From contig JAYULE010000185.1 of NCBI GenBank assembly GCA_043763845.1, positions 10,853 through 74,852 of the forward strand: a DNA stretch of 64,000 nt, in the 5' to 3' direction. Of the stretch, positions 12,843-47,497 are shown in pieces. Source of the DNA: Sphingobacteriales bacterium (lineage in GTDB: Bacteria; Bacteroidota; Bacteroidia; Sphingobacteriales; Sphingobacteriaceae). The notes beneath the pieces were generated by a model. The model searched no databases. It worked only from the letters and a program-made list of their open reading frames with translations, and was not told where the DNA came from. Position 1 is the stretch's first letter, and each line of letters opens with the position of its first letter. A program made the translations under genes and the position numbers.

Positions 12843-12846
12843 ATAA

Positions 12847-14286: not shown

Positions 14287-14292
14287 AATGTT

Positions 14293-15456: not shown

Positions 15457-15465
15457 GATACTAAA

Positions 15466-15837
15466 TTATTGGCCAATAAGCCTTTTAACTCTTATTAGTA
15501 ATTCGCCAGCCATTATTGGTTTCTTTAAAAAATCATCGGCACCAAGTTTAAACGCCTCTAAAATAGAATCTTCGTTTCCAACGCTTGATACTACAATTAC
15601 TGGTATTTTAGCAAATGTATTTTGTGTTCTAATTTTACTTAAAATTTCAAAACCGTTGGCATATGGCATCATAATATCGGTAATAACCAATTTATAATCA
15701 AAATTGCTAGCAATTAATTTTTCCATGGCTTCTTTTCCATTGCTAGCTACATCAACAAAATAACCTTCTCTTGTTAATATTTTATCAACAATATTTTGCA
15801 TCAACAATTCGTCTTCTATATATAGTATTTTGTGCAT
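15466..15837 (-). CDS. Stand-alone CheY-like response-regulator receiver with no output domain
   Basis: ILYIEDE, VITDIMMPYANG, VVSS and LKKP are receiver signatures. At 123 aa there is no room for an output domain. Confidence 0.85.
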   Translation of the reverse strand: MHKILYIEDELLMQNIVDKILTREGYFVDVASNGKEAMEKLIASNFDYKLVITDIMMPYANGFEILSKIRTQNTFAKIPVIVVSSVGNEDSILEAFKLGADDFLKKPIMAGELLIRVKRLIGQ

Positions 15838-20223: not shown

Positions 20224-20778
20224 ATGTCAATTACAATTCCCACCCAATACCAGTGGCTAAACCAAGAAGGTGGCCCTAAAATGCTTGTTGAAGCACTAAA
20301 ATTGTATGGTACGCTTGAAGTGACGGGCCATGGTAATAACTCTACCATTATGCAATGGGCAAAAGAAGTAGGCGGCAAAGTTGCCGATGTTTACAAAGCC
20401 GATAAAATACCTTGGTGTGGCTTATTTATGGCTGTAATAGCCAAACGTAGTGGTAAAATAGTACCTAAAGACCCACTTTGGGCATTAAACTGGGGCACAT
20501 TTGGTACCGCTACTAATACCGCAATGCTTGGCGATACCCTTGTTTTTGTTCGTCGTACTCTTGAAGGTGCAAAAGCTGGCCACGTTGCCGTATATATAGG
20601 CGAAGATGAAACTGCCTACCACGTTATAGGCGGCAACCAAGACGATAAAGTTAGCTTTACCCGTATGGCTAAAACCAGGCTTTATGCTATACGTAGGCCA
20701 CAATACAATGTACAACCAGCTAATGTGCGGGTAATAAAATTGTTGCCCAAAGGCGGGTTAAGTAATAATGAGGGGTAG
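20224..20778 (+). CDS. NlpC/P60-CHAP superfamily cell-wall hydrolase (TIGR02594-like, phage/T6SS-associated type), no signal peptide
   Basis: Candidate catalytic Cys in KIPWCGLFMA and His in AGHVAVYIGED, then YHVIGGNQDDKV. The overall pattern matches what I remember of the TIGR02594 family. Confidence 0.6.
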   Translation: MSITIPTQYQWLNQEGGPKMLVEALKLYGTLEVTGHGNNSTIMQWAKEVGGKVADVYKADKIPWCGLFMAVIAKRSGKIVPKDPLWALNWGTFGTATNTAMLGDTLVFVRRTLEGAKAGHVAVYIGEDETAYHVIGGNQDDKVSFTRMAKTRLYAIRRPQYNVQPANVRVIKLLPKGGLSNNEG

Positions 20779-20996: not shown

Positions 20997-22013
20997 ATGA
21001 AAAAAATAATTTCTATTGATGGTGGTGGTATACGAGGCATTATACCAGGCCAAGTGTTAGTGGCATTAGAAAAAAAACTACAAATAAAAACAGGAAACAC
21101 CGATGCTCGTATAGCGCATTATTTCGATTTTTTTGCAGGAACCAGTACTGGGGGTATTTTAACCTGCCTGCTACTTTGTCCCGATGAAACAAACCCTTTA
21201 ATGCCAAAATTTACGGCTAAGCAAGCGGTAGATTTATATATGAATAATGGAAATAAAATTTTTGATGCCTCGAGTTGGCAAAAATTTACACAAGGTTTAT
21301 TTGATGAAAAATACCCTAGTGCCCCTATTGAAAAAACTTTATTAAAATACTTTGGTAATACAAGGCTAAGTAGCCTCCTTAAGCCATGCCTAATAACTGC
21401 TTATGATATTATGGAGCGCAAAACTCATTTTTTTGCCCAGCATGATTATAATAGAAAAGGCGACGGTGGCGATTTTTTAATAAGAGATGTATGTAGGGCA
21501 ACATCGGCTGCGCCCACTTATTTTGAAACTGCGTTAATAAAATCTATTAGTGGGGTTTCTTACCCTTTAATAGATGGTGGCATTTTTGCCAACGACCCAG
21601 CATTGTGCGCCTACTCCGAAGTGCGTAACGCCAAAGGTTTACCTACTGCAAAAGATATGTTTATTCTTTCGCTTGGTACTGGAAGCGAAAGTAAATCCTA
21701 CAATTATAATAAAGCAAAAGATTGGGGTGCAGTAGGCTGGATAAAACCTGTAATTGATATTATGATGTCGGCATCGGCCGAAACCACCCATTACCATTTG
21801 CTAAAAATGTTTGCAGCAAATGGCAATCAAAATAACTATATGCGCATACAACCTAAAAGTTTAAGCAATGCAAAACCAGATATGGACGATGCCAGCCTAA
21901 ACAACTTAATGGCTTTAAAAGAAGTAGGCATTAAAACAGCTGAAAATTGTAACAGCGATTTAGATATTATTGTGGATATATTAATGGAAGGCGAGGATAA
22001 GGTTGAATATTAA
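20997..22013 (+). CDS. Patatin-like phospholipase
   Basis: Oxyanion box DGGGIRG, nucleophile elbow GTSTGG (GxSxG) and catalytic Asp in IDGGIFANDP. No signal peptide. Confidence 0.9.
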   Translation: MKKIISIDGGGIRGIIPGQVLVALEKKLQIKTGNTDARIAHYFDFFAGTSTGGILTCLLLCPDETNPLMPKFTAKQAVDLYMNNGNKIFDASSWQKFTQGLFDEKYPSAPIEKTLLKYFGNTRLSSLLKPCLITAYDIMERKTHFFAQHDYNRKGDGGDFLIRDVCRATSAAPTYFETALIKSISGVSYPLIDGGIFANDPALCAYSEVRNAKGLPTAKDMFILSLGTGSESKSYNYNKAKDWGAVGWIKPVIDIMMSASAETTHYHLLKMFAANGNQNNYMRIQPKSLSNAKPDMDDASLNNLMALKEVGIKTAENCNSDLDIIVDILMEGEDKVEY

Positions 22014-22344: not shown

Positions 22345-23175
22345 ATGCCACACACCCAATGCCTAGTTACCCCTGCTTTTTCTATTGTAGGCACACAACA
22401 AATAATAAACCAACCAGCCAGTTTTTCTTTTGAGTTCGACAGTGTTGAAGACCAAGCCTTAATATTGGCCTACCAATGGTATGTAAATGGTAATTTAGTA
22501 ATCAATAAAAATCAACCCACATTTACCGAGCAAATGCAATTAGGTACTTATACTATTGGTGGCAGATTATTAACAGCGGAAGGCTGGAGCGGTATAAAAA
22601 CAATATTTTTTGAAAAATTAGAACAGAATATTACACCCATTGGTAATTTTACTTTTATGGCAGTTTATTTTAAATGGCTTGAAGGTGCAGGTACAGATTT
22701 AGATATTAAAGTGGGTTTTGAAAATACGGGTACAATTTACGATAAAAAATATGCTGGTTATAATCAGATTGCTAATATGCAAAATGGATACACATTGCCC
22801 GCAAATATCACTCCACAAACTGATGCTTATTTATGGTGGGGATCAGATAGTACAGGTACTGCTGGTACAGAATCTGTATTAATTGGTGTCCAAAAATTTA
22901 TTGCCGATAATCCTTTATCCCTAAATATAGTTGAAATTGCATTGTATGCTACTTGGTTCGGTGCACCAAATTCGGGCATATTTACAGTGGAGTTAAAGAC
23001 TTATTTAAATGGTACTATGGCCAAAAATGGTACTGTTTTTGAAAACACTGGCGGTACAGCCCCGTTTACTAATTCTAAAACAATTACTACTTTAAACAAT
23101 AAGCCTAATTACTATAAAATAGGCATCATAAAATATAACAAAACAAGCAATTTGGCACAATTACAAACTTTATAA
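22345..23175 (+). CDS. Hypothetical protein (276 aa) with an N-terminal Ig/PKD-like segment
   Basis: Long ORF directly downstream of module B. YQWYVNGNLV resembles a PKD/Ig-like strand pattern. I recognised no other motif. Confidence 0.5.
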   Translation: MPHTQCLVTPAFSIVGTQQIINQPASFSFEFDSVEDQALILAYQWYVNGNLVINKNQPTFTEQMQLGTYTIGGRLLTAEGWSGIKTIFFEKLEQNITPIGNFTFMAVYFKWLEGAGTDLDIKVGFENTGTIYDKKYAGYNQIANMQNGYTLPANITPQTDAYLWWGSDSTGTAGTESVLIGVQKFIADNPLSLNIVEIALYATWFGAPNSGIFTVELKTYLNGTMAKNGTVFENTGGTAPFTNSKTITTLNNKPNYYKIGIIKYNKTSNLAQLQTL

Positions 23176-23232: not shown

Positions 23233-25278
23233 ATGAAACACAAAAACCAAACCATCAAAAAAATTAAATTAGCACTAACATTTACCCTATTTGCATTTGC
23301 TAACTTAAACAATGCAACCGCACAATGGTCTAGCAACCCATCTGTAAACACCCCTATTGCCAACACCGCACTTGCCGAATACGACCACGAATCTATACCC
23401 GATGGCAGTGGGGGAATAATAGTAGTTTGGGCAGTTAGCGATGAAAATTTAGGTACCGATGTTATAAAAGCCAAAAGAGTATCGGCCAGCGGTGTAACTA
23501 TATGGGGAGGTACAAATGGCATCCAAATAACCAACTCTACCCGTAACCAAGCCTTTCCTCATTTGGTAACCGATGGTAATGGCGGGGCAATAATTACTTG
23601 GCTTAATTTTGATGTAGATGCAGAACTTACCGCAACAGAGGCTGATGTTTACGCTCAACGCATTAACGCTAGTGGCACACTTCTTTGGGGTAACGGTGGG
23701 CTTATAATAAATGCCACCCCTGGCAACCAAGTATTTTCAAGCATTGTTAGCGATGACGCATCGGGTGCTATTATTGTATGGTCCGATGAAGCCCAAGAAG
23801 CCATTTACGCACAACGAGTGAATGCCAATGGCCAAATTATTTGGGCTGCCAATGGCAAAAATATATATACTGCCTTAATAACTAAAACTATTGGTAATAG
23901 TCAAATTTTTAAGGGTATAAATGGCAATTTTACCGTAGTTTTTAATACCGTTTTCGAAGAGGTTAGAAACAACCAAACCAAAACTAAACCAAACGAATTT
24001 TACCTACAAACCATAAACGCAAACGGCCAAAACCAATTGGCTACCGCAATACAATTGTACAACTTTCCTACCGATTATGATATAGAAGACATTATAAGCG
24101 ATAATAACGGCGGTTTATTCAGCACCGTTTCTTACCAAACTAATACAACAGTAAGTTTATTTTTACAAAAATATTCGGCCTTAGGTATTCCTCAATTTGC
24201 GGGCACCTATGGCCTAACAGTTGACAATAGTATAGCAAAAAGCCAAACATACCCCCGTTACATTGCAAACACCAATATAATTACTGACAATACCGGTGGT
24301 GCTTTAATAGGCTGGACGGATGTACGAAACAGTATTACAGGTTTTTATGTACAACGTTTTAACAATACAGGCACAAAATTATTTAATGCCAACGATGTAA
24401 GTGTTTTTGGAAATAATTTGGATATAAACTCAGATGCACCCAGTGCAATTATTGATAGCGATGGGAATTATGTATATATAACGCCAAAAAGCAGTACTAC
24501 GTTAGGCAACGGAGCACTATACACCCAAAAAGTAAGCACCACAGGTACAACCTTATGGACAGCAGGCGGTGTATTGGTAAGCAACTCGGCAGGCAATAAA
24601 TCTAGTCCTACATTAACCCTTACGGGCAATAAAATGATAGCCCTTTGGGAAGATTTTAGAGCAAGTATACCGGCTGGTTTCAATTCGGATATTTATGCCC
24701 AAACTATAAACAGCAACGGAACCCTACCGGTTACCCTTACCACATTTACCGCCCTTTACGGGGATGATAAAGTACGTTTAAATTGGCAAACAGCAACCGA
24801 AATTAATAACCAAGGTTTTGATATAGAACGAAGTACCGACGGACTAATATTTTCAAAAATAGCTTATGTAAAAGGTAATGGAACTACCAATGTGCCTCAA
24901 AACTATAACCATAACGATGCTAATTTAATTTCACAAACCCAATACCTATACTACCGCTTAAAACAAGTAGATAGCAATGGCGAATTTGAATATTCAAACA
25001 TTGTATCAGTAAAAATACCGCAATTAAACAACGCAACTTTTAGCATTTACCCCAACCCAGTAACAGCTAAACAGTTTAATGTAAAATTAGCAGGTTTACC
25101 AAAAGGTAATTACCAAACAAGTATAACCAATATGGCAGGTATAAATGTTAAAAAAGCTATCATTTTTTGCGATGATACCTCAAACCAAGTTGTAAATGTG
25201 GATTTACCCAAAGGGATGTATAATTTAGAAATCACATCTGCAAATTACCGTCAAGTACAAAAACTGTTGGTAGAATAA
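23233..25278 (+). CDS. Secreted repeat (propeller-like) protein with a T9SS type-A C-terminal sorting domain
   Basis: Signal peptide (...FANLNNATAQ). Repeats of the form G-A-I-I-V/T-W...D-V/I-YAQR-I/V-NA-x-G...W. The C-terminus FSIYPNPVTAKQFNVKL...GMYNLEITSANYRQVQKLLVE is typical of T9SS CTDs. Confidence 0.8.
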   Translation: MKHKNQTIKKIKLALTFTLFAFANLNNATAQWSSNPSVNTPIANTALAEYDHESIPDGSGGIIVVWAVSDENLGTDVIKAKRVSASGVTIWGGTNGIQITNSTRNQAFPHLVTDGNGGAIITWLNFDVDAELTATEADVYAQRINASGTLLWGNGGLIINATPGNQVFSSIVSDDASGAIIVWSDEAQEAIYAQRVNANGQIIWAANGKNIYTALITKTIGNSQIFKGINGNFTVVFNTVFEEVRNNQTKTKPNEFYLQTINANGQNQLATAIQLYNFPTDYDIEDIISDNNGGLFSTVSYQTNTTVSLFLQKYSALGIPQFAGTYGLTVDNSIAKSQTYPRYIANTNIITDNTGGALIGWTDVRNSITGFYVQRFNNTGTKLFNANDVSVFGNNLDINSDAPSAIIDSDGNYVYITPKSSTTLGNGALYTQKVSTTGTTLWTAGGVLVSNSAGNKSSPTLTLTGNKMIALWEDFRASIPAGFNSDIYAQTINSNGTLPVTLTTFTALYGDDKVRLNWQTATEINNQGFDIERSTDGLIFSKIAYVKGNGTTNVPQNYNHNDANLISQTQYLYYRLKQVDSNGEFEYSNIVSVKIPQLNNATFSIYPNPVTAKQFNVKLAGLPKGNYQTSITNMAGINVKKAIIFCDDTSNQVVNVDLPKGMYNLEITSANYRQVQKLLVE

Positions 25279-25486: not shown

Positions 25487-25510
25487 CACCCCCTTTGGGG
25501 GCCGGGGGGA
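25487..25510 (+). repeat. C5/G5 hairpin element (dispersed ~25-nt family), abutting module C
   Basis: CACCCCCTTTGGGGGCCGGGGGGA. Same family as the copies at 35284, 35385-35616, 46211 and 47473. Confidence 0.75.
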
Positions 25511-25703: not shown

Positions 25704-27578
25704 ATGGCATATCATTTTTTTGCAGATATTCAAAATTTAAACATTCAAACTGTTAATGCTTTTGGGCCGAGTGCCAACTCTACAATAAATACAATTGAGA
25801 ATGAAAATTTTTTAGTAACCAGTAAACATACTGCAACAGCAGATACTAACGCTATAGCAGTTTGTAATGGACAAATATTGGTACAACAACAAACGGAAAA
25901 TTCAGAACTTTTAAATATTGTATTTAAACCCCTACCCACACAACCGTTTAATTTTCCTAAAATCAAGTATTTTATATATAAAGGCATTAAGAAAGATAGT
26001 TTAATAGCTGCAACAACTACAGTCCTTGCCGCAAAAGGTAATAACGATTTAGTAGACGCTATTTGGGCAGCTTTTGAAACAACTAACACTACAGGTAGCC
26101 CAAGCCAAGCAATTTTAGGCTTAGATACTGCCATAAATAATTTGCCGGAAAGCCAAACAATCGAAGATGTATTTTCGACTATTTACCCCGAGGTACAGTT
26201 TTGGCATATAAATGCGGGTAACACTATAGGTAAATTTGATAAAGATGCAATAGGTTTTGAAATTGTTTTAGATACACTTTTTTACCAACCTACATTGGCA
26301 TTGGCTAGAAACTCAGCTACCTTTATTAGGGCAAAAACATTATCAACCACACCGCTCCAAAAAGATTTTTTTGAACATTGGAACGATAAAGAAAGTATCC
26401 TAAATTTTATAGACCCTTGTGCATTTTTTGGTAGTTTTTATGCTGATAAATTAAGCGTAATTAGCGCAAGCCAAAAAAGTAAATGGAAAGGGGAAGATTT
26501 ATATAATAACCTTCTAAGTAAATTTTCTAATAAAAATAAATGTTATATAGACATTAGAAATGAATTTAATTTTTCGCTTAATTATTTCAAAAATTATGGA
26601 TTAAGCCCAACCAATAATTTTACTGAAATTAAAATAAAAAAGGGCGATACAGCCTTCGCCTCAATTGATTATTATGCCAATTCATGGCCAATCTTAATCT
26701 TGGATAATACTGATTTTGCTACCTCAACTGCTAACCACCAAAGTTTTAGTTTACAGTTGCCTTCTGGTAACGGGGACAACCCTGAACCTATAATTTATTT
26801 TAGCAAGGCATATAATAATTCTGATACATTCCCTGATGAATATGACAAACAAGAAAAATTTAAACCTTTAGCTGTAGCAAATAATTTTTCCGATGAATTT
26901 AATATAGGCTTACCTTGGATAAACGGTAATTTAATAAGCTCTTATGTGCAAATTAAATACTGCAAAAGGAAAAGCGAAGAAGTTTTGCCACTGCCCCTAA
27001 ATACCCAAATGCGTAAAGGGGATAACTTTGACTGTCTTTTTAGTCCAAAAATAAATTTCAACTATAACAATTCACTTACACCAACTAAATTTTGTAACGA
27101 AAGTTTCTATATAGATTTAAGGACAATACATGGTTATGATGCTGTTTTTGTACCTAGTATTTCATTTGATTTAGATAAAGTAATATTGTTTGCCAACCTA
27201 GATGCGTACAACGAAAATACTACTAAAAAATATCTTCTCCCGTTTGAACTTAACAGTGAATTTAAAAATGTAAATACTGATTTTAAATTTATAGATAATT
27301 TAATATTAAAATATCAAAACCAACCACTTTCTGAAATTGGAGATAATGTCTTAATTACTTTTACGCATCCACAATGGAGTACAATTATTGGTTATAATGA
27401 ATTTGAAGGTAACTACCCTGTTTTTATAAGTATTGTTGAAAATAGACTAGAAAATATTAACAATCAAAGCTATACTGTTTTTGATATTATATTAAAAGGA
27501 TATAAAATTAATGGAAATAAGATTGAGGTTACATCACATAATTTAAATTTTAATATTTATTCTTTAAACTTAAATTAA
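25704..27578 (+). CDS. Hypothetical protein (624 aa), no signal peptide
   Basis: First ORF after module C. Its stop overlaps the next start (TAATG at 27576-27580). I recognised no motif. Confidence 0.6.
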   Translation: MAYHFFADIQNLNIQTVNAFGPSANSTINTIENENFLVTSKHTATADTNAIAVCNGQILVQQQTENSELLNIVFKPLPTQPFNFPKIKYFIYKGIKKDSLIAATTTVLAAKGNNDLVDAIWAAFETTNTTGSPSQAILGLDTAINNLPESQTIEDVFSTIYPEVQFWHINAGNTIGKFDKDAIGFEIVLDTLFYQPTLALARNSATFIRAKTLSTTPLQKDFFEHWNDKESILNFIDPCAFFGSFYADKLSVISASQKSKWKGEDLYNNLLSKFSNKNKCYIDIRNEFNFSLNYFKNYGLSPTNNFTEIKIKKGDTAFASIDYYANSWPILILDNTDFATSTANHQSFSLQLPSGNGDNPEPIIYFSKAYNNSDTFPDEYDKQEKFKPLAVANNFSDEFNIGLPWINGNLISSYVQIKYCKRKSEEVLPLPLNTQMRKGDNFDCLFSPKINFNYNNSLTPTKFCNESFYIDLRTIHGYDAVFVPSISFDLDKVILFANLDAYNENTTKKYLLPFELNSEFKNVNTDFKFIDNLILKYQNQPLSEIGDNVLITFTHPQWSTIIGYNEFEGNYPVFISIVENRLENINNQSYTVFDIILKGYKINGNKIEVTSHNLNFNIYSLNLN

Positions 27579-28228
27579 TGATAGAAAATAAGACAGAAAA
27601 ATATAACTTAAAAAAACGGATAAGTTTTTTTATTGGTGTTACACTTATTTTAATGGGTATAGGTTTAATATTGTTAGGTGATACTTTTACTTATGCACCA
27701 TATATTTTTATGCTTTTTGGAATATTTGTTATCATAATTACAAAATATAATGTTAAGCCTACACAGTTGTTAGTTGTATCTATTTTTATAATGTATTTTA
27801 TTACTTCTTTTTATTACGAAGCTATTATCAAATCTTATGATTTTAAAATAACAGTGCCACAAAATCAAAATAAATTTTATTTCATTGCATCCAACTATTA
27901 CTTAAAATGGGGGGATTACTTATTGACTTGGTTTAAACCTAAAACCATAAATATTAATTTAGTAGATGATAAAGTTTTATACCTGAACAGAGGGATGCCA
28001 AATAGTATTTTTTATGACAGAGTGCCTATAGCAAAACAAGGTTATATTATTTCAAATGAAGTTCGAGGTGATTATGAGTTTATTGTTTTATTACCTTTTA
28101 AAAACCGCAAACAAGATTTTAGTTATCAAGAAGTTCGGAAATTAACCGATAGCATTTACAATATGATATTAAATAAAAAATTAATGGAATATAAACTAGA
28201 TTCAATAGAAAAAAATGGATTCAATTAA
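27578..28228 (+). CDS. Membrane protein (216 aa) with three N-terminal TM helices
   Basis: Hydrophobic stretches ISFFIGVTLILMGIGLILLG, YIFMLFGIFVIIIT and LLVVSIFIMYFITSFYY. It is translationally coupled on both sides. Confidence 0.55.
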   Translation: MIENKTEKYNLKKRISFFIGVTLILMGIGLILLGDTFTYAPYIFMLFGIFVIIITKYNVKPTQLLVVSIFIMYFITSFYYEAIIKSYDFKITVPQNQNKFYFIASNYYLKWGDYLLTWFKPKTININLVDDKVLYLNRGMPNSIFYDRVPIAKQGYIISNEVRGDYEFIVLLPFKNRKQDFSYQEVRKLTDSIYNMILNKKLMEYKLDSIEKNGFN

Positions 28229-28985
28229 CATAAAATTTACAGCATTTATATCAAAGGAATTAGGTAAAAAACTAAAGGATTTTTTTGTTAAAATTCCATA
28301 CATAAATATTGCAGTTAATAAAGATGCGTTTTTAATTGATATACAAAAAGTAACTGGTTATTGGGGCGAAGAGCCATTATCTGGCCTTCCGTTTTTAAAA
28401 GAATATTTATTTTACAAAACAGATGATCGTTCATTTAATCAAGTGGGTACGCATAGGTTACAGTTATCAGCAAGTATTGATGTGTCAAAAATTGGCCTAA
28501 CCAGCTTTTACAATCAGAATACAAAATATTTTAAACCAACCGCTGGTGACAGTGAAAGATATACTATATATTTTGACCGTTTTTTTGATAACAGGTTTAC
28601 TGATAAAAGCGAGGTAAAAAAAGCAAATCCAACTTCTGGTTTAGAATTGGTTTACCCAACGTTTAAAAATTCTTTATTTTCTAGTTTAACCGATATTTTA
28701 AATTCAGCAACTATACAAGCATCGACTTCTGCTGGTTACCCTTTTACAAATCCATTAACCACCCCTAATATTGATATTGATTTAAAATTAAAAATACTTA
28801 AAACTTCAGATAGAATTTATTGCTATTTTACTGGCACACACAACCTATTTCCCTGTTATGAATTAATTTGTAATGGTAAATTAATATATATGTATGATCC
28901 TATTAAATTTAAAAGACTTGGTCCTGACCCAATAAATTTGAATAGAACTCAAACTTTTGAAAAAGCTATTTATTTTTCGATTTAA
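28215..28985 (+). CDS. Hypothetical protein (256 aa)
   Basis: It overlaps the upstream ORF by 14 nt and ends 22 nt before the giant ORF start. I recognised no motif. Confidence 0.5.
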   Translation: MDSINIKFTAFISKELGKKLKDFFVKIPYINIAVNKDAFLIDIQKVTGYWGEEPLSGLPFLKEYLFYKTDDRSFNQVGTHRLQLSASIDVSKIGLTSFYNQNTKYFKPTAGDSERYTIYFDRFFDNRFTDKSEVKKANPTSGLELVYPTFKNSLFSSLTDILNSATIQASTSAGYPFTNPLTTPNIDIDLKLKILKTSDRIYCYFTGTHNLFPCYELICNGKLIYMYDPIKFKRLGPDPINLNRTQTFEKAIYFSI

Positions 28986-29007
28986 AAAATTAAATATAAT
29001 CTACGCT

Positions 29008-32000
29008 ATGCCAAACAAATTTTACCCCCCACTTTCAACCCTCATAACTCCGGCACAAATACCCGAGAGTTTAAGTTTTATATCGTCGGGGATTAATTCT
29101 TTACTAGAAAAAATTTATTACAGAGATTTAAAAATACAGAGGTCATCAAGCAGTGCAACTATTTCCTACAATCTGGATATTATCACCTTTTCGGAGCTAC
29201 TAAAACTGGAAATACCAGGCACAGGCTTAGTATTAACTCTCAATTCCAATTTAGAAAACCCCAACGACGACATTAATGTAATACCGCTTTCGTTTACATG
29301 GCATTGGGGCATACAACAATATATTAGAAATTTTAAATTAACTAATTTCTCTTTCAGTAGTAATGACTTTTACAAACTTATTTTTGATCTGGTTAACGTA
29401 AGCGACTTAGATTTACTATTATCTACAACCAGTTTGTTAATTGAAACTGCAAACCCTTTAGATACTTTTGTACAAGCGGCTAACACTAAATATCCCACAC
29501 TAAACATACCTTATCCATTAAACACAGATAACGACATTGCAATTAACGATACGCTAACTGCTTTAGCACAAAACACTACGGTTAGCTTGCAAGAGATAGT
29601 TTTTGTTGACTATGTTATAGATGAAACTAGTATAGAAAACACGCTACAAAACATCAATTTTCTATTTTTCCCTACATTAGGTGCTAATATTATTGATAGC
29701 ATCAAAGAACTACTTATTCCACAAGTTACCGCCACTGCCCAACTCTCGGCAGGCTTAGAAATACCCCGCAAAGTATTAATACCCATAAATGCAAACGGAG
29801 AAATAGAAACAGATGAAGCCATAAAAACCACATTGCTTTTTAATATTGGCGAGTTTAGGTTTGATAGCAAAGCAGGTTTTGGCTTTAATGATAATATTGT
29901 AATTAGTTTTCCAGCTGCACATCCCAAAGCTCAAATAGCAAACACTGGCCTCATTATCAGCTTTACTGAAGCTAAGCTAGATCTTAGCCGCACCACCAAC
30001 ATCCCCGAAGCCGACCTAGCCGGCTACCCCCTAGATTTTGTAGGCCTTTACGTACAGACAGCCGAAATTACTTTTTCCCGCTTTGGTATTACCGACCCAA
30101 CAAAGCCTAGTACCACCTTATTTGCAGAAAACCTATTGATAGGCACAGGCGGTATTTCGGGTACTATTGGCTTGGCAGCCAATGGTACATTGTACCGTAA
30201 GTTTGGCACAAACTTCGATGCCGAGCTAAAACTGTTTTCGCTAACCTTTAGGCAAGGCACCATTACCCAATGTAATATAGAAGGCTTGCTCACTATACCG
30301 AAATTTAAAAACGGAAACGGTAGTACCGAGAATGCCAAAATAGGTATACAAGCCCGCATTTTTGATAACGGCGATTTTAGCATTACCGCCAAGCCACTAT
30401 TAACACCATATATCATTTCATTTCCAAATGTATTCGACTTAAAAGTGCGTAGCCTAGAAGTAGGCAAGCTAAACGATTCATATTATGCCGAAGTATCGGG
30501 CGTATTAGATTTTACGGCAAATGTACCTTTGTTGGGTGAAGTATTACCCAAACAAATAGAAATACACCGCCTGCGTATTTGGGACGATGGGCACCTAGAG
30601 TTTGCCGCTGGCCGCATAAAACTACAAAAAGCCTTTAAATTAGAAGTAGGGCCTGTAAAATTAGAAGTAGTAGAACTTAGCTTGGCACCTTACAAAAAGG
30701 GCAATCGTACCTATAGCTCCATTACTTTCGATGGTATGATAAACACCGGGCGGGCAGGCGTAAACGTGGGTGGCAATGGCATTAAATATTATTTTAATAC
30801 GGACGTTCATCCGGATGGGTTCGATCATTTCATACGCATAGAAGGGATAGATATTGACATACGCGTACCAGGCGATAAAACTAAAGACGCCAATTTCTTA
30901 CTTAAAGGGCACTTAAGTATGAAGAACCCAGAGGTAGAAGGTGTTGATGAGCAAGGGAAGCCATTGAGCCAAGCCAGCACCGAATATGCTGGCTCGGTTA
31001 CTTTTGATATACCCAAACTAGATTTTGGCGGCAGTGCAGGTATGCGCCTTAACCCAAGCATACCCGCATTTTTGGTGGATATGAATATAGAACTAGCCAC
31101 CCCCGTACCCATAGGTGCAACTGGCTTGGGCATTTACGGCTTTAGAGGCTTATTTGGCCAACATTATGTTCCCAACAAGGCCGATGATTCAAGTTGGTTA
31201 GAATACTACCGAGCTCCAACAAAAGGTGTAAATATTGATAAATTTGCCTCTAAACCCGGTTTATCTTTAGGTGCTGGGGCTTCTATAGCCACCAGTTTCG
31301 ATTCAGGTAAAACTTTTTCTAGCAAGCTGTTTTTATTATTGGGTTTGCCCGATGTTTTCCTCCTCGAAGGGCAAGCCGCCATCCTGCGCAAGCGCTTAGG
31401 TATTGATGATGATGTTGAACCTCCTTTTACCGCATTAATTATTATTGGCGACCAAGCTATACGAGCAAATTTAGCTGTTGACTATAAAATACCCGATAGT
31501 GGTAGCATTTTAGACTTACACGGCGAGTTGGATATGGCTTTCTTTTTCAATAACTCCTCGGGTTGGTATTTAAACATAGGAAAAGATGCGCCCGAAACCG
31601 CCAGAATAAGAACCCAAGTATTAAGCTTGTTTAATGGCTATGCCTATTTTATGATTTCGGCACAGGGCATAAAAGCTGGTGCTGGGGCAAGGTTCGATTT
31701 TAACAAACGCTTTGGGCCCGTATCGGTTGGCTGCGGCGCTTTCCTTAATTTAGGCGGTTTTATTAATTTTAGGCCTTTCCAAATTGGTGGTTTTATACAA
31801 TTAGGCGGTTACGCTTATATAAGAGTTTGGAGATGGGGATTTGAAATATCTGTACAGGCAGGTTTGGCAGTAGAAGCTCCGCATCCATTTAATATTGTGG
31901 GTAGTGTAGAAATAAGCTTTAGAATAATTAGAAGATTTAGAATAGGCTTAGAATTTAGCTGGCGCATCAGTGGCGATGATTCGCCTTTGCGAGTGCCTAT

Positions 32001-35000
32001 ACCTGTACTTAACTTACCCAATCCTGCCAAAGGTATTATCCCAGCCAAGGCTACACATATTTTAACACAAGAAACATTTACTTTAAATTATGTAAATGCA
32101 ATAACAAGTACTATACCTGCACCTAACGATTTTAGTGATGGTAAATGGAAAGTTGATTTTACAAAACCAGAAACTACCATACCATTAGATTGTTTTATTG
32201 ATATAGAACTGCAAAAACCTGTACTGCCAGGTATTGTACCTTTGGGTGGGGCATCTAATCAAGTTCCTACTGGTTATAAAGAACTAATGCCACCTATTAG
32301 AGGGTACAGCGACCAAATTGAGCACCAATTTAGGTTAGAAAACTTAGAGATTTTTGCTTGGGTACCCACCTCTGCTGCCGCAGGTAATTGGGTTTCCTAC
32401 AATATTTACGAGGCGGTAACTAGTATTGTAAACAGCAATAACAACGCTACCGCCCCTGTAATTCTGTCTAATTTAAAACAAGGGTACTGGCAATTTGTAG
32501 AACCAGGCCGTTTTAACAAAATACGCCTACTCGCACAAAATATGTTTAGCTTTTCATCTAAAACCATAAATGGTGCCGACAATTTAGATGCTCGTAATTT
32601 TAAACCAAAAGATGTTTTTTGTTACGATACTGTTTTAAAAAAGAACATTATAAACTGGGAAAAAGAAACAGTAGACACCGTATATCCACTTACCGAAGCC
32701 ATAAGTTTTAGTGGGGTAAGTTTTACTTTTTCGGGCACTGCTGGCCAGGTTAAAAGCATTCCTTCTAGTATTCCACCTAGTTTAACTAAAAACCTATACC
32801 TGCAAGAAAATAGCTTCATTAGCCTAGTTTTCCCCGAACCAGTAAATAAAATAGAACTTACATTTGGTGCCAACCAAAGCAATGTTACCGTTTTATATTA
32901 TACCACCAATTTTAAAGTAAGTGATTATGGCGAAGTGATATCCTACGATTATTTGATTCGCCAAGATAACATAAACCCTATTCAGCAAAATGCGAAATTG
33001 AATTATTTGGATGGTGAGGATGGCATTGATAAAATTGTAATTGCCATAAATTCACAACCCGATTTAGATTACGAAGGTGATGTACAACTAGGTGGATATT
33101 ACCCCATTGCCAATGGTTTTGAAATACCCGATAACATTTATCCTTACATAGAAGTGGCTAAAACCCTGCTGTATATAACTTTTTACAACCGCAGTTTTAC
33201 CTTGCCACAAGTATTGGCCAAAAACACCCTTACCGAAACGGGTATTGTAGCCCAATTTGCCATGGATAGTCAGCAGGCTTTGGTGGGTAATATTACTGCC
33301 CAAATAAATGGCAGGCCTTTAAAAAAAGAAAATTACTATCAAGACGATACCAACAGTGTATTACAATTGAACAAAGCCTACCAGTTTACCGGCAAAAATA
33401 ATGCGTTATTTATACCTTATCAGGATAGCCTAAAAATAGAAAATGCTAGCTTTGCAGTAGAACTTACGGCGGTATTTAAAGTTGATTCTGGTATAAGTAC
33501 GCTTTTAACAAAAGTAGTCGATGGCCAAACCGAAGGCTATAGAAAAGGATTTAGCTTGCACCTCATACAAAATGCAGCAAGCCAAACCAATACTACTTTT
33601 ACCACCCTAGCTGCTATACCTACCTTTACCATTTTACTAACTATTTACAGTGGCTTTAATACCGTTTTTGTTACCGCTTTTGATAAATATACGCTGGATT
33701 GTAACACAAATAAATTCAGCGCAAAGCAATATAAAAACATTTTGGTATCGGTAAACCGAAACAGTAATATTTTAGAGATTTTTATAGATGGGATTTCTAA
33801 AAGCCAAACTGCTATACCTTCAGCCTTAGCCGTATTTTCACCCCAGCCCAAATTTACTTACCTCAACCAAATAACCTACTTTACAGCCGAGCAGCAAAAA
33901 CGTATAACCGAAAGCCCATTAACTAACCAACAATTAGCCAATGAAGTTGCAATATTAGATGCAGGTATCAATAAAATAGTACAACCCCTTTGGCGGCCAA
34001 ATACCACTTATGCCATTCGCATAACAACTAGCGATACGGTGCAAGGCATAAATAAAGCATCTACACAAATATTTGGCTTTAAAACGGCAGGCCCTATTGG
34101 CCATTTCCATTTGCAAAACCCACAATACATTGCATTAAAAGCTCAAGACCGTGAAGGCGAATTTAAACTGGCCAATCTTAGAGAATACATTGATTTCGAA
34201 CGCTCGTATCCCGATGCCCAAGGCCGTTACGAATTAAGCAAACCCCCATTTTATATAGCACCTAAAATCAAATTGTTTTTTACGCAACCTTACATCAACG
34301 CCATGTTTGCCAATTGGGATAATTATCTAAACTTAACGCCCCTAAGCAGCGAGTTAGTGGTACAATTAATAGCCCAAAATGGCACTACCATTGCCCAAAA
34401 TTTAAAATGGGAAAATCCTATTGAAGAAATTATAAACGACGATAATATAGATAATTTTCCCGAAGACTTGAAAACAATTTATTGGTTAAACAAAAATTTA
34501 ACCCAAGGTGCTTGTAACCCGGTAAGTAGCGATATGAAAAAACGCATACAAAACGGTAGCTACACATTTCCGGATTTAGTACCTAATACCATGTACACCG
34601 CTGTATTTAACGCTACTTACGGTGTGGGTAATGCAACACCACAAGCGGTTGAAGTGCATAAATACAACTTTAAAACATCAATATTTGCCAGTTTTGCAAC
34701 GCAAGCAAGCAGCTTTATTTTAAACGCTACATCCGGGCAAGAAAAATATGACATTTATACCAAAAACATAGCCATAACGCAAAGCATTATCAACAGTCAA
34801 ATAAAACCAATAATTAACGAAGTTACGGGCATTAATACAGCAAACGCAAGCCAATACACTGCAAAATTCGACCGTTTAATTTATGGCGGTTTTTCATTAA
34901 ACATCCTCGAAAATGCCCCAAACACCGTAATTACTGTTTTAATAAATACCACAACTACCAAATGTTTGGGCCTCCTAATAAGTAACCCCGAGCCCTTTAA

Positions 35001-35259
35001 CGACCCGAAAATACCCACCAATTTATTAGACGATACTATTAAACTTACCTTAACCCTAGCCAACAATACCGTAATACCACCTTCAAGTTTTATATACATA
35101 CACTCGGCCGATACCTCGGCAGTATTTATTACGAATGCCGCAATGGACATCCCGCTAGGTAAAATTAAATTAGATTTTACTTACAAACTTTTTAATGGAT
35201 TTAATTATACCACCTTATTTGAAACTTACAGTACACCAGAGCTGAATTTATTGCAATAA
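29008..35259 (+). CDS. Giant protein (2083 aa), unknown family, with a LamG/ConA-like segment near aa 1460-1610
   Basis: Uninterrupted 6.25-kb ORF. I moved the start to the ATG at 29008 (MPNKFYPPL...) because the ORF-track start at 28957 overlaps the upstream gene. There is no signal peptide and no T9SS CTD. The composition is beta-rich and Gly/Asn/Thr-rich. Confidence 0.75.
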   Translation: MPNKFYPPLSTLITPAQIPESLSFISSGINSLLEKIYYRDLKIQRSSSSATISYNLDIITFSELLKLEIPGTGLVLTLNSNLENPNDDINVIPLSFTWHWGIQQYIRNFKLTNFSFSSNDFYKLIFDLVNVSDLDLLLSTTSLLIETANPLDTFVQAANTKYPTLNIPYPLNTDNDIAINDTLTALAQNTTVSLQEIVFVDYVIDETSIENTLQNINFLFFPTLGANIIDSIKELLIPQVTATAQLSAGLEIPRKVLIPINANGEIETDEAIKTTLLFNIGEFRFDSKAGFGFNDNIVISFPAAHPKAQIANTGLIISFTEAKLDLSRTTNIPEADLAGYPLDFVGLYVQTAEITFSRFGITDPTKPSTTLFAENLLIGTGGISGTIGLAANGTLYRKFGTNFDAELKLFSLTFRQGTITQCNIEGLLTIPKFKNGNGSTENAKIGIQARIFDNGDFSITAKPLLTPYIISFPNVFDLKVRSLEVGKLNDSYYAEVSGVLDFTANVPLLGEVLPKQIEIHRLRIWDDGHLEFAAGRIKLQKAFKLEVGPVKLEVVELSLAPYKKGNRTYSSITFDGMINTGRAGVNVGGNGIKYYFNTDVHPDGFDHFIRIEGIDIDIRVPGDKTKDANFLLKGHLSMKNPEVEGVDEQGKPLSQASTEYAGSVTFDIPKLDFGGSAGMRLNPSIPAFLVDMNIELATPVPIGATGLGIYGFRGLFGQHYVPNKADDSSWLEYYRAPTKGVNIDKFASKPGLSLGAGASIATSFDSGKTFSSKLFLLLGLPDVFLLEGQAAILRKRLGIDDDVEPPFTALIIIGDQAIRANLAVDYKIPDSGSILDLHGELDMAFFFNNSSGWYLNIGKDAPETARIRTQVLSLFNGYAYFMISAQGIKAGAGARFDFNKRFGPVSVGCGAFLNLGGFINFRPFQIGGFIQLGGYAYIRVWRWGFEISVQAGLAVEAPHPFNIVGSVEISFRIIRRFRIGLEFSWRISGDDSPLRVPIPVLNLPNPAKGIIPAKATHILTQETFTLNYVNAITSTIPAPNDFSDGKWKVDFTKPETTIPLDCFIDIELQKPVLPGIVPLGGASNQVPTGYKELMPPIRGYSDQIEHQFRLENLEIFAWVPTSAAAGNWVSYNIYEAVTSIVNSNNNATAPVILSNLKQGYWQFVEPGRFNKIRLLAQNMFSFSSKTINGADNLDARNFKPKDVFCYDTVLKKNIINWEKETVDTVYPLTEAISFSGVSFTFSGTAGQVKSIPSSIPPSLTKNLYLQENSFISLVFPEPVNKIELTFGANQSNVTVLYYTTNFKVSDYGEVISYDYLIRQDNINPIQQNAKLNYLDGEDGIDKIVIAINSQPDLDYEGDVQLGGYYPIANGFEIPDNIYPYIEVAKTLLYITFYNRSFTLPQVLAKNTLTETGIVAQFAMDSQQALVGNITAQINGRPLKKENYYQDDTNSVLQLNKAYQFTGKNNALFIPYQDSLKIENASFAVELTAVFKVDSGISTLLTKVVDGQTEGYRKGFSLHLIQNAASQTNTTFTTLAAIPTFTILLTIYSGFNTVFVTAFDKYTLDCNTNKFSAKQYKNILVSVNRNSNILEIFIDGISKSQTAIPSALAVFSPQPKFTYLNQITYFTAEQQKRITESPLTNQQLANEVAILDAGINKIVQPLWRPNTTYAIRITTSDTVQGINKASTQIFGFKTAGPIGHFHLQNPQYIALKAQDREGEFKLANLREYIDFERSYPDAQGRYELSKPPFYIAPKIKLFFTQPYINAMFANWDNYLNLTPLSSELVVQLIAQNGTTIAQNLKWENPIEEIINDDNIDNFPEDLKTIYWLNKNLTQGACNPVSSDMKKRIQNGSYTFPDLVPNTMYTAVFNATYGVGNATPQAVEVHKYNFKTSIFASFATQASSFILNATSGQEKYDIYTKNIAITQSIINSQIKPIINEVTGINTANASQYTAKFDRLIYGGFSLNILENAPNTVITVLINTTTTKCLGLLISNPEPFNDPKIPTNLLDDTIKLTLTLANNTVIPPSSFIYIHSADTSAVFITNAAMDIPLGKIKLDFTYKLFNGFNYTTLFETYSTPELNLLQ

Positions 35260-35283: not shown

Positions 35284-35308
35284 TCCCCCTAACCCCCGAA
35301 GGGGGGAT
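35284..35308 (-). repeat. C5/G5 hairpin element, reverse orientation
   Basis: TCCCCCTAACCCCCGAAGGGGGGAT is the reverse complement of the 47473 copy (ATCCCCCCTTCGGGGGTTAGGGGGA). Confidence 0.8.
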
Positions 35309-35350
35309 TGAAAGCGTTAATAAAAAGAATATAAAAATGAAAACAATACA

Positions 35351-35616
35351 TATAAACATAACATATTCACACACTCCTTCGTTTACACCCCCTTCGGGGG
35401 CTGGGGGGATTATAAACACAACACATTCACACGCTCCTTCATTCACACCCCCTTCGGGAACTGGGGGGATTATAACCACCACACATTCACCCACTCCTTC
35501 CTCTACACCCCCTTCGGGAACTGGGGGGATTATAACCACCACACATTCACCCACTCCTTCGTTTACACCCCCTTTGGGGGCTGGGGGGATTACACCCCCT
35601 TCGGGGGCTGGGGGGA
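35351..35616 (+). repeat. Tandem array of a 60-bp unit (about 4.4 copies), each carrying a C5/G5 hairpin, ending 17 nt before the 1669-aa ORF
   Basis: The period is exactly 60 nt (copies at 35361-35420, 35421-35480 and 35481-35540, then a truncated copy and an extra hairpin). The unit is ACACATTCACnCnCTCCTTCnTTnACACCCCCTTCGGGnnCTGGGGGGATTATAAnCACn. Confidence 0.9.
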
Positions 35617-35633
35617 CTAAACTTTAACCCACT

Positions 35634-38600
35634 ATGCCTACCATAACCCCTTCTCACTCTTTTTGTGCCGATTATAGCTCAATGTCGGCTTGTTTATTTG
35701 CTATACAAGCGCAACAGGCTAGCGGTGCATTTAATGCCTACCCCGAGTTAATACAATTGTTAAACACCTTAGAGTTAGATTTGGTAAACGATTTGTTTAA
35801 CCGCACTTTGGTAGTATATGGCATTATTAACGGCAACATAACGGTAACCGTAAACGAAATTAAAGGCGATTTTAGCCATATAGATTTCTCAAGAATAGAT
35901 TATAAAGTAGGCTACATCAATACCACAAACACCAGTTACAGCTCGCAATTTAAAACCGTAACCAATATATTTTTTGATTTTTGTAGCCGTCAGGGTGAAA
36001 TAAGCGAAGAAAATAAGTTATATATTGAGTACGCTTTATTACCCGTATTAGATGCGTTAGAGGAGTTAATACTATATTTATCAGCACTTAAATTAAATCA
36101 ATGTATCGAACCCGAAAATGCAACTTTTGGCAATTCGCCCGATTTGTATTTGCAAACCGCAGGTAGCGATGGTATGGATGGTACCCTTGCAGGCATACAC
36201 CTACGCTGGGGTTTAACTGGCGTACTTCAAGATCATTTTCCTAAAGGTAGCTTAGCCTCTGGTACGGTAGGTTTTAACCAAGCCAACGATTTTATATTTA
36301 TATCTCGTACACCTTATACCAATCCCATAAGCATTACCCTCGATTTCGAAACCACAACGCCAATTATTTGCTTTGCAAAACCTATATTTACTTTACCAAA
36401 AAGTCTATTTTGGGCCAGTATTTTTAATATAAAAAACTTCCCTCACTACTACGATAACAATTGGACATATTTACTCAACTACTCCATCAATAACAAAAAA
36501 GTAAGTAGTAGAGTACGCTTAATTTTTACCGATAAAGCTTTGTACAATAGCTTAGCAAAAACAATAAATCCTACAGAGCAACACTACAATTTTTTGAAAG
36601 CCTATACAGGTATAATTGAAATGTATGTAAGCAATGCCGCTTTTAATATAGATTTCGATTTCCGTAAAACAGCAGGTGCCGCTAATGCCACTTTAAAAAT
36701 ACAGGTAATTAACCAAATAGGTAATGGCGAAGAAACAGAAGAAATAATTGCCATACAAAAAAACATAACTATTACTAGCGGTAATGCCACCACTGCCCAA
36801 ATTGAGGGCGAAAACATCCAAAAAATAAGACTTAAAAAAACCGAGGGGTCTGTACTAAAAGCCATTACCCTACAAACCTATAACGATTTTTATATCAGTC
36901 GCCAAGCTGCCGATTGGCAAGCCATAGAAAGCGGATTTGCTTTATCATTAGATCAAACAACAGTATACAACCGCTTAGAAAAAACTACCCAAGCTATCAA
37001 TAACGCTTGGCCACAATTTAACCAAGGCGCAAAAGTTAATATCCAAAATTATAGAGATAAGTGGGACAAAGCCACAGATACGGAAGAAAACGACCCGCCT
37101 ATGAGTGAAGCCGTTAGCAAATTTATTGCGCTTAGCAATACTAGCCGCCAAGCTTTAGAACATATTGATGCAGCAAATAATGCCAGTACCGACGAAAAAT
37201 TACCCGCTTTAAATTATGCCAACATTTTAAACCTATTTACACTCGATTTTCACATTGCCCGTATGTTTGGTGTAGGCTATATTGATGAGTTGAGCAATGT
37301 GGCTATCAACAATAAGTATATATATAAAATAAGCTACCAAAACCGCACAAGTTTAGCGAGTGCCCAACAAATAACCCGAGAATATTTAAGCCTGCCTACC
37401 GCCAAAACCGATAGCCGTTTACCTGCCAAAGCCAATATTGGCCCAATATCTTACGATTTTCCATTGGATAATGATTTATCACAATCACTATTCGATGGTA
37501 ACGGTTATTCATCACTTTCAGATGTGCGTGTGGTAAACATTACCCGCCAGCCTTTTGCTTTTGAAGCAACCGAAAATAATTATTTTAATAATTTGGCTGT
37601 GGCCGAAAACTTTAATCAGTTTCAACAAAGTATTCCTGTAATGTATGGTATAGAATACAGGGCAACCAACCAACCAAATTATGTAAAACCCGAAATAACA
37701 GGTAGCAAACGTACAGGCAAGAAATATTTCGCCAACCCCGAAGGCACTTTTTTAGAAACCGTACCCGTATTAGATAACGCCACAAGCTTATACATACATT
37801 TTGAAAGTGAAGCAGGCATACACCATTATGCCATTTATAGTATCAATTTATTTTCTCGCACATCCACCTTAAGCGATGAAGTAAGTACCGATGCTACCGT
37901 TTTTAAACCTCGCAATACCTTACAAGCCCCTACCAATATTGGGGTGCAATACATACAAAAAGAAAATACTCTTTTATTTACCACCAAAAAAGAACAAGAA
38001 TGGTTAACAAGGCGTAAAGAGACTTTCCCAAATGTTAATGTATGCTTTACAAGGGTAACTTTTAACTGGTTAGATATTGTAGATGTATCGCACATACAAG
38101 ATATAGACATTATAGACATCAATAACCTAGATTTAAGCAAAGTTGTTAAAGGCAGCAAAATTAATTTTTGGTTTAAGCCTCAGCCACCCCTACAAATTAG
38201 CGGTATTATTAGCAATGTAAGTCCAGTTGCCAATCAAGCCAATAAAGCAATCATAAACGTAGCAGGTTATACATTAATTAATGGTAAACCAGTAGAACCC
38301 AACGTAACCAGCTTTAGCCATTTTATAGGCAGTTTGTTGAGCACCGAAGATGGGCAATTTGCCATTACCCAAATAACCAGTACCAATGGCAAATTAAACA
38401 TTACCATTGATAAAATTTTTCAATCGCAAAATATCAAAAACGAGGCCCAAACTGATGTTGATAATTTCGGCATCCGCGAATACTACATTTCCCCAAAAAC
38501 AGGCTCACGCTTTACCATTATAGAAAACTTAGGCAGCACCAATAACTATAACAGTGTGCCGGCAAGCGTTAATTTGGTAAACACCAGCCTATCAACAACC

Positions 38601-46210: not shown

Positions 46211-46234
46211 ATCCCCCTTTGGGGGCTAGGGGGT
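46211..46234 (+). repeat. C5/G5 hairpin element
   Basis: ATCCCCCTTTGGGGGCTAGGGGGT. A degenerate copy lies at 46150-46170 (ATCCCCATTTTGGGGTAGGGT). Confidence 0.75.
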
Positions 46235-47472: not shown

Positions 47473-47497
47473 ATCCCCCCTTCGGGGGTTAGGGGGA
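47473..47497 (+). repeat. C5/G5 hairpin element
   Basis: ATCCCCCCTTCGGGGGTTAGGGGGA. It is followed by two GCCCG-rich direct repeats (47504-47555). Confidence 0.8.

Follow-up and report, generated by a model that had tools for sequence, protein, structure and literature searches.

A 64,000-nucleotide (nt) stretch of a contig from a Sphingobacteriales bacterium (JAYULE010000185.1, positions 10,853-74,852; hereafter the window) carries a locus built around three large proteins, designated A, D and E. We propose, with the chances of being right or wrong about evenly balanced, that this A-D-E locus encodes a new complex, working without an ATPase, that would deliver polymorphic and mostly antibacterial effectors. 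All genes of the locus lie on the plus strand: those for the core components A (25704-27578, 624 amino acids (aa)) and D (29008-35259, 2083 aa) enclose the genes for B (27578-28228, 216 aa), a lineage-specific protein with three transmembrane (TM) helices, and C (28215-28985, 256 aa), a lineage-specific soluble protein, and the gene for the third core component, E (35634-40643, 1669 aa), follows that for D. Across related loci the core is conserved and syntenic, effector domains are fused to A, toxin-type C-termini co-vary with immunity-like open reading frames (ORFs), and the core proteins have neither predicted export signals nor known folds.

Conservation of the A-D-E core

The window proteins were searched by tblastn in 82 related loci, comprising 80 genomic loci with a D homologue and two more; the two closest relatives, metagenome contigs L083 and L084, were counted separately. 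A was found in 70 of the 82 loci, nearly always upstream of D, and E in 77, always after D. The missing copies of A and E lie mostly at contig ends, and the order A...D-E on one strand is kept in all loci except one. No homologue of B or C was detected in any of the 82 loci by tblastn, and iterated hidden Markov model searches also gave none. On this distribution, A, D and E are taken to be the invariant core of the widespread family, and this core includes no ATPase and no membrane protein. In its minimal form, found in Thermoanaerobaculia, the whole cluster consists of an A-family protein (~1150 aa), D and E.

The initial annotation had described A to D as a tightly coupled four-gene operon ending in D, with products forming a self-contained complex of fixed stoichiometry. 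The four ORFs of 624, 216, 256 and 2083 aa were recovered on the plus strand, as were the junctions between them: the TAATG stop/start overlap of A and B (27576-27580), the 14-nt overlap of B and C (28215-28228), and the 22-nt gap between C and the ATG of D at 29008. The operon does not end in D, as the gene for E follows on the same strand, and the absence of B and C from the 82 loci does not fit a self-contained complex of the four products, the conserved partners being A, D and E. Tight gene coupling is nevertheless a family trait, since D and E are separated by a median of 25 nt, and by no more than 120 nt in 66 of 73 loci. The giant ORF is also intact in relatives: D reaches 1800 aa or more in 73 of 78 loci, and E reaches 1350 aa or more in 71 of 73.

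The A-B-C-D order is kept in L083 and L084, which are independent of each other, with identities of 59% for A, 36-41% for B, 43-51% for C and 48-56% for D. Because order and sequence are conserved in both, all four are judged to be real genes. The mechanically called ORF of D reaches back to a TTG at 28957, and the N-termini of homologues line up with the Met codon at 29008. A metagenome scaffold in ENA holds the same locus, 100% identical except for a 100-nt indel in the repeat array between D and E. In composition the locus is a mosaic: G+C content at third codon positions is 0.18-0.21 in A, B and C, 0.32-0.34 in D and E, and 0.17-0.18 in F and G, the two tail-fibre-like genes downstream of E.

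The related loci come from Bacteroidota (Sphingobacteriaceae, Flavobacteriales and Chitinophagales/Saprospiraceae) and from Chlorobiota/Kapaibacteria, Acidobacteriota, Planctomycetota, and Alpha- and Gammaproteobacteria. Many are in metagenome-assembled genomes (MAGs), so taxonomic labels may include binning errors. Response regulators or extracytoplasmic function (ECF) sigma factors are frequent neighbours. Two loci, in MAGs labelled Flavobacterium (L051) and Hydrocarboniphaga (L061), have in common A-D-E plus flanking genes for an ECF sigma factor, a GerE-type response regulator and proteins with type IX secretion system (T9SS) tails; this sharing across phylum labels would be explained by misbinning or by a large island that was transferred recently.

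Families and folds of the core proteins

The window proteins were scanned with Pfam, NCBIfam, PADLOC and PHROGs, and sequence and profile searches were made against the PDB. A, B, C and E had no match in any of the four collections, and single sequences and profiles of A, C, D and E retrieved nothing from the PDB below an expect value (E-value) of 0.1. A, D and E had no tblastn match in 50,697 phage genomes. Neither a signal peptide nor a TM segment was predicted in A, C, D, E, F or G, and no secretion-related Pfam or NCBIfam domain was found in A to E. The initial annotation had named no motif in the 624-, 256- and 2083-aa proteins apart from one LamG-like segment. A, B and C indeed matched no family, and characterised families are likewise missing for A, D and E in these searches; D, however, can be linked to the uncharacterised family DUF6603, as described below.

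The A family comprises 1238 clusters at 50% identity, most members being 650-700 aa long. The AlphaFold model of A is confident (pLDDT 91.4, pTM 0.92). Foldseek returned no significant match for it in the PDB (best E-value 0.088), and the best hit in BFVD had a probability of 0.33 over 41 aligned columns. Because a confident model finds no counterpart in either database, A is predicted to be neither a VgrG/gp27-gp5 spike nor any other solved fold. The structural comparison proposed in the initial annotation thus left A without a known fold and D with generic matches only.

D homologues are 1800-2900 aa long and occur in several phyla. In the window protein, an N-terminal alpha/beta and helical region (residues 1-236) is followed by a DUF6603-like core (239-987) of ~40 long antiparallel beta-strands, modelled by AlphaFold as a ~750-residue run of long beta-hairpins. 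Conservation then extends to ~1200, a variable insert occupies ~1200-1650, and a conserved C-terminal region spans ~1650-2083. Both ends of D are conserved in alignments, with many invariant Gly, Pro and aromatic residues. In some homologues the variable insert contains Laminin_G_3 (4 of 20 D homologues), IgGFc_binding or, in one homologue, Toxin_R_bind_N (PF07953).

Several earlier statements about D were upheld: the AlphaFold model of residues 1-1200 is rich in strands, the protein is free of tandem repeats, and the view that it is not a simple repetitive adhesin is supported. Others were not. No Pfam LamG domain was found in the window D that would match the LamG-like segment noted earlier, and the description as Gly/Asn/Thr-rich is weak, as the composition (L 9.6, I 9.4, T 7.9, N 7.6, A 7.0 and G 6.6%) is mildly Thr/Asn-rich and not Gly-rich. 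The suggested likeness to AsmA/TamB also failed, with no Pfam match, no N-terminal TM segment and no such structure among the top 50 Foldseek hits. The ApoB100 belt, SlpA, LptD and ushers were rejected as homologues of D, the likeness being one of architecture and not of homology.

D is assigned by sequence as a divergent member of the DUF6603 superfamily. Residues 247-963 align with an annotated DUF6603 protein of Mycetohabitans (tblastn E-value 5e-38), the D profile matches a plasmid protein of Haloferax mediterranei with an hhalign probability of 99.7%, and 4 of 20 D homologues have DUF6603 matches at E-values of 0.01 or less (best 2e-9). The window D itself scores 26.1 bits against Pfam DUF6603 (PF20248) over residues 875-984, below the gathering score of 27, and differs from that family by conserved N- and C-terminal regions of its own and by its partners A and E. 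The match names D and does not explain it, as DUF6603 is a family without known function, and no literature mentioning it was found.

Two distant clusters are of interest in this respect. In Mycetohabitans, a fungal endosymbiont, the DUF6603 giant follows a phospholipase D (PLD)-like gene. In the archaeon H. mediterranei, plasmid pHME322 (L089, record 168387-181500) has three consecutive giant genes, encoding a D/DUF6603 homologue of 1858 aa, a hypothetical protein of 1370 aa and a 1142-aa 'baseplate J/gp47 family protein', with no sheath or tube genes nearby. Similarity between E and the 1370-aa middle protein is weak (probability 13%), and by hhalign neither A nor E resembles the proteins encoded beside the Mycetohabitans giant or the baseplate J protein of Haloferax. 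About 10 kb downstream of the Haloferax giants is the gene for halocin H4.

The alignment of E has ~80 invariant residues across phyla, and motifs resembling fibronectin type III domains were recognised by eye near its C-terminus. D and E were considered as paralogues and BLASTP showed no similarity between them; single-linkage clustering merged the two, probably through accessory domains common to fused or extended members.

Effector domains fused to A

Domains were surveyed in 36 extended A-family proteins, a part of the family, together with 19 proteins of the fam4 family described below. Many A-family members are extended, and the domains fused to the C-terminus of A include Peptidase_M23, Peptidase_M74, PG_binding_1, SH3_3, DUF6402 and SprT-like domains, and a Phosphoesterase domain of the phospholipase C type (E-value 4e-68). 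Some A-family members carry an N-terminal Peptidase_S8 (subtilase) domain. The window A carries no C-terminal extension.

A larger protein of 2500-3000 aa contains the A module, at ~1500-1950, in Acidobacteriota, Alphaproteobacteria and many Flavobacteriales; its N-terminal domain is Peptidase_S8, and its C-terminal domain, which is conserved, is Peptidase_C15-like (pyroglutamyl-peptidase-like). The latter forms the C-terminal ~400 aa in L002, L025, L029, L030, L071 and other loci, and stands alone in L068 (8123-9370). It was considered as a variable toxin and rejected, the domain being conserved; it is absent from the window. Since the position of the catalytic Cys is variable (Ser, Phe, Pro, Glu or Ala), with the His not always kept, the domain is probably a pseudo-peptidase and an integral part of A-family proteins in their canonical form.

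Candidate toxin-immunity genes between A and D

In 19 loci the slot separating A from D is filled by fam4, a protein of ~1000 aa. Of the 171 pairwise fam4 comparisons, 163 show similarity over the N-terminal 650 aa, and only 27 over the C-terminal 230 aa. An EndoU RNase domain, a recurrent domain of polymorphic toxins (PMC3482391), is found at the C-terminal end of four of the 19 proteins. The C-terminal types are accompanied by different families of small downstream ORFs: type 0 by imm0 in six of seven cases, type 1 by imm1 in four of four (in one to three tandem copies), and type 2 by imm4 in two of three. Because the C-termini vary and co-vary with the ORFs downstream, fam4 and these small ORFs are recognised by sequence as bearing the signature of toxin-immunity cassettes.

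In the window the same slot holds B and C, whose homologues were found in L083 and L084 only. The hydrophobic segments of B (15-33, 36-54 and 66-84) are retained in both, so the three N-terminal TM helices first noted for this protein, and its standing as the only membrane protein, are confirmed among A to E. B has the lowest G+C content of the locus, 24%. C has no PDB or Pfam match, and no profile similarity to the fam4 toxin carrier. As B and C are confined to three loci, diverge faster than A and D and have a low G+C content, they would together be a swappable, lineage-specific cassette, and are candidates for the occupants of the cargo/immunity slot, in which either could be the toxin and the other the immunity protein. 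B is a candidate immunity protein or membrane partner, and C a candidate cargo, effector or adaptor.

B had initially been suggested to act as a holin, an anchor or an immunity component. A place in an immunity or cargo-immunity cassette fits best, because the same position in relatives holds toxin-immunity pairs, and holin and anchor fit less well. A typical holin is ~70-150 aa long, and at 216 aa B is about twice the usual size. It has three TM segments but does not lie beside the cell-wall hydrolase gene of the window (g184), has no PHROGs match and is known from three loci.

Flanking genes and other features of the window

The full locus can be described as (cell-wall hydrolase, patatin, fam3)-A-B-C-D-E-two tail-fibre-like genes, of which the four-gene unit A to D is the 5' part. 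The phage-type cell-wall hydrolase g184 (20224-20778, plus strand, 184 aa) has no signal peptide or TM segment. In tblastn searches it is 44-46% identical over 95-99% of its length to phage genes annotated as 'cell wall hydrolase' or 'baseplate hub subunit and tail lysozyme', and it presumably resembles the NlpC/P60-like family TIGR02594. A wall enzyme, with PG_binding_1 and VanY domains, is also found near the locus in L084. Tentatively associated with the system, g184 is a possible accessory, effector or release enzyme.

The patatin-like phospholipase (20997-22013, plus strand, 338 aa; Pfam Patatin 5.7e-23) is of the CapV type, an effector type of cyclic-oligonucleotide-based anti-phage signalling systems (CBASS). 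It scores 183.5 bits against NCBIfam CBASS_lipase, under the cut-off of 200, and 1.2e-67 against the PADLOC phospholipase effector; no CD-NTase cyclase was found among the window ORFs scanned with Pfam. In L083 a patatin of 72% identity lies directly upstream of the fam3 gene and A, and in L046 a patatin gene follows E. Because the 72% identical copy also adjoins an A-D-E locus, the patatin may have been recruited as a candidate lipase cargo.

The fam3 gene (22345-23175, plus strand) encodes a 276-aa protein with a conserved N-terminal ~90 aa of Ig/PKD-like appearance and a variable remainder. By tblastn and clustering, fam3 is found upstream of A in 19 of the 82 loci, of Sphingobacteriaceae type, and in L083 and L084; family members are 276-1129 aa long and have weak PKD and PA14 matches. 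Between fam3 and A, a gene at 23233-25278 encodes an unrelated protein of 681 aa, which has both a signal peptide and, at its C-terminus, a T9SS sorting domain. Since L083 and L084 have no such gene at that position, it looks like an insertion into the locus.

Downstream of E lie the tail-fibre-like genes F (41075-43165, plus strand, 696 aa) and G (43277-46135, plus strand, 952 aa). F has PHROGs matches to minor tail, head decoration and peptidase modules, and partial tblastn matches to proteins of Flavobacterium, Cellulophaga and crAss-like phages. G matches a PHROGs minor tail protein (4.7e-14) and phage minor-tail proteins with E-values down to 6e-23, and has tblastn matches downstream of E in five loci. 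A region of G is common to fam2 proteins, which follow E in 20 loci of Sphingobacteriaceae type.

The unusually long spacer between D and E is filled by six hairpins resembling repetitive extragenic palindromic (REP) elements (35285-35615, plus strand), with a 60-nt unit present four times, and its predicted RNA fold is strongly structured (z = -3.2). The G+C-rich element, of sequence CCCCCTTCGGGGGCTGGGGGG, also occurs in the intergenic region upstream of A (25489-25509, plus strand), and further copies are at 46213-46233, 47476-47496 and 62011-62031. The hairpin pattern CCCCCTTYGGGRRCYGGGGGG has 10 matches in the window against 0 expected. A scan for sigma-70 promoters and terminators stayed at chance level, with a model unsuited to Bacteroidota, and no Rfam family was found in 16000-47500.

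The window represents a low-G+C Bacteroidota chromosome (~34% G+C) and also carries T9SS-type sorting domains, a GldG-like ATP-binding cassette (ABC) auxiliary gene, RuvB and DnaN. An IS200/IS605-family Y1 transposase gene lies at 49646-50098, after RuvB and ~3.5 kb downstream of the locus. On the minus strand, 6173-15837 is an apparent exopolysaccharide operon encoding a response regulator, a HEAT-repeat protein, two GT2 glycosyltransferases, a protein with tetratricopeptide repeats and a YaiO beta-barrel, and a glycoside-hydrolase-like protein with DUF4838 and F5_F8_type_C domains.

A proposed delivery complex

We hypothesize that A, D and E assemble into a large complex that would be made in the cytoplasm and need no ATPase. 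In this proposal A would be the carrier, with effectors either fused to its C-terminus or encoded separately between A and D. D and E would form a scaffold or translocon, to which D would contribute the giant beta-hairpin sheet and a variable lectin-type insert; this insert and the fibre-like proteins would bind the target. Protection of the producer would come from the small genes that follow each toxin, and in the window the toxin slot would be taken by B (membrane) and C (soluble) as an immunity/cargo cassette. The complex would leave the producer by lysis, perhaps aided by the wall hydrolase, or by another route. In support, extracellular-type binding modules recur in the locus family (Laminin_G_3, IgGFc_binding, PKD/PA14, F and G), as do lipases (the patatin of L083 and the PLD-like gene beside the Mycetohabitans DUF6603 giant).

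Several points weigh against this proposal. Physical assembly of A, D and E, their export by lysis or another route, and the delivery step are inferred from comparative genomics. The window holds no recognisable toxin domain, B and C have no detected homology to known toxins or immunity proteins, and the order of membrane protein (B) and then soluble protein (C) is the reverse of the usual toxin-then-immunity arrangement. The model of D residues 1-1200 is of moderate confidence (pLDDT 73.5, pTM 0.38), and in the PDB Foldseek matched it to generic large beta-sheets or barrels (the ApoB100 belt, SlpA, LptD and ushers) with TM-scores of 0.1-0.2. The association of g184 and the patatin with the locus is seen in few loci. 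Effector domains of the nuclease, lipase and peptidase kinds are also found in anti-phage defence, and murein hydrolases with fibres would fit a phage-derived adhesion or penetration device equally.

Alternative explanations

The last point leads to the alternative that the locus is derived from a phage tail or baseplate and serves as an adhesion or penetration structure or other surface organelle and not as a dedicated toxin injector, with D and E at the fibre or baseplate periphery and the enzymes only breaching envelopes. The Haloferax cluster on pHME322, where the D homologue (99.7%) and a second giant precede the baseplate J/gp47 gene, is consistent with such an origin; F and G share modules with phage minor-tail and fibre proteins, and g184 is a phage-type wall hydrolase. 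However, A, D and E are unmatched in the 50,697 phage genomes, and no sheath, tube, spike, capsid or terminase gene was found in the window or in the Pfam-annotated relatives inspected. The confident A model finds no counterpart among phage or VgrG folds, neither the E nor the A profile retrieves a baseplate protein from the PDB, and a purely structural role leaves the EndoU-immunity cassettes unexplained. We consider this origin unlikely.

Anti-phage defence by abortive infection, in which the giants would sense infection and the variable nuclease, lipase or peptidase domains would kill the infected cell, is decidedly unlikely. Murein peptidases with PG-binding and SH3 domains work outside the cytoplasm, and the lectin, PKD, PA14 and fibre modules suggest an extracellular role. 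The co-variation of toxin C-termini with tandem immunity-like ORFs is what inter-bacterial toxins typically show, NTPase and nucleic-acid sensor domains are missing, and no PADLOC model matches A, B, C, D or E. These observations are set against a neighbouring patatin of CBASS effector type, an effector repertoire (RNase, phospholipases, peptidases) that overlaps with that of defence systems, core proteins that all lack export signals, and a mosaic locus near an IS200 transposase.

To the same low degree we credit a variant of the delivery idea, a toxin similar to the ABC-type toxin complexes (Tc toxins) that would be released by lysis, bind through lectins and act on eukaryotes such as protists, fungi or invertebrates. 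As in Tc toxins, several giant co-encoded components (three here) lack signal peptides, the cargo is variable, receptor-binding inserts are present (variable and lectin-type, including Toxin_R_bind_N (PF07953) in one homologue) and there is no ATPase; the DUF6603 giant beside a PLD-like gene in a fungal endosymbiont, together with the lipase cargo, also fits a eukaryotic target. There is, however, no sequence or fold similarity to Tc toxins and no RHS/YD cocoon, the cargo is not an Rhs C-terminus, and the murein hydrolases and cognate immunity genes point to bacteria as the targets. Pfam scans of A, D, E and 20 D homologues gave no VRP1, TcA_TcB_BD, SpvB or RHS, there was no PDB match, and no Rhs/Tc structure appeared among the top 50 Foldseek hits of the D model, which is of moderate confidence. 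The shell and channel of TcA are alpha-helical, whereas D is beta-rich.

More improbable still is a closed A-B-C-D complex of fixed stoichiometry with B as holin or membrane anchor: the overlapping junctions are real, the gene order is kept in two relatives, and B has a three-TM N-terminus like that of class I holins with a wall hydrolase 5 kb upstream, but none of the 82 wider relatives has B or C, whereas E is nearly always present in them, B is larger than usual holins and does not adjoin the hydrolase, and the B/C slot holds toxin-immunity cassettes elsewhere.

Relation to known systems

The delivery complex proposed here is close in logic to the polymorphic toxin systems defined by Zhang, Aravind and colleagues (2012, PMC3482391). 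As in those systems, relatives of the window locus combine a conserved N-terminus with a hypervariable C-terminal toxin (EndoU) and co-varying, sometimes tandem, immunity-like ORFs, and have a second carrier, A, with alternative C-terminal enzymatic domains. The trafficking modules listed for polymorphic toxins are signal peptide, TpsA, VgrG/PAAR/Hcp, PVC, WXG/LXG, MuF, TcdB/TcaC and the T9SS C-terminal sorting domain (PMC3482391). The A-D-E locus, in contrast, has none of them, its conserved partners are three proteins of unrecognised fold, and the window copy has no recognisable toxin domain.

Evolved VgrGs are similar in logic, with A as a ~650-700-aa carrier of optional C-terminal murein hydrolase or lipase domains. 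With type VI secretion systems (T6SS) and extracellular contractile injection systems (eCIS; Afp/PVC) the locus shares fibre-like genes at its end, and one archaeal D homologue lies beside a baseplate J-annotated gene. Unlike in these systems, the A model shows no gp27/gp5 or other known fold, and no sheath, tube, baseplate or AAA+ ATPase gene was found in the window or in the Pfam-annotated relatives inspected. The features of T9SS cargo (a Por_Secre_tail sorting domain and a signal peptide) are both absent from A to G, and for CBASS the patatin falls below the CBASS_lipase cut-off and has no cyclase among the scanned window ORFs. Full-text searches with DUF6603, DUF6402 and related terms found no description of an A-D-E locus in the literature. 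Because the defining components of these systems were tested for and not found, the locus is judged by sequence to be new as a system, akin in logic to polymorphic toxins, evolved VgrG spikes and Tc toxins and a member of none.

It is possible, rather than probable, that A-D-E represents an unrecognised class of tripartite, ATPase-less, non-contractile delivery nanomachine with novel folds, which would bring interchangeable effectors (RNases, murein hydrolases and lipases) to competitors in at least five bacterial phyla and have remote DUF6603 relatives in archaea. It would then be a new entry beside T6SS/eCIS, contact-dependent inhibition (CDI) and Tc toxins.

Implications

The A-D-E loci are spread over soil, freshwater and marine Bacteroidota, Acidobacteriota and other phyla, and their core proteins are unlike known secretion or injection machinery in sequence, and in fold where modelled. 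Even if the proposed mechanism is wrong, the invariant triad, including a confidently predicted novel fold in A, is a defined target for structural and genetic work. If the proposal is right, the locus would provide an undescribed route of toxin delivery between cells in a family with more than 1000 A clusters at 50% identity. It would also assign functions to three large groups of 'hypothetical' giants, including DUF6603, and would offer both a new mechanism in microbial warfare and a new modular scaffold for protein delivery.

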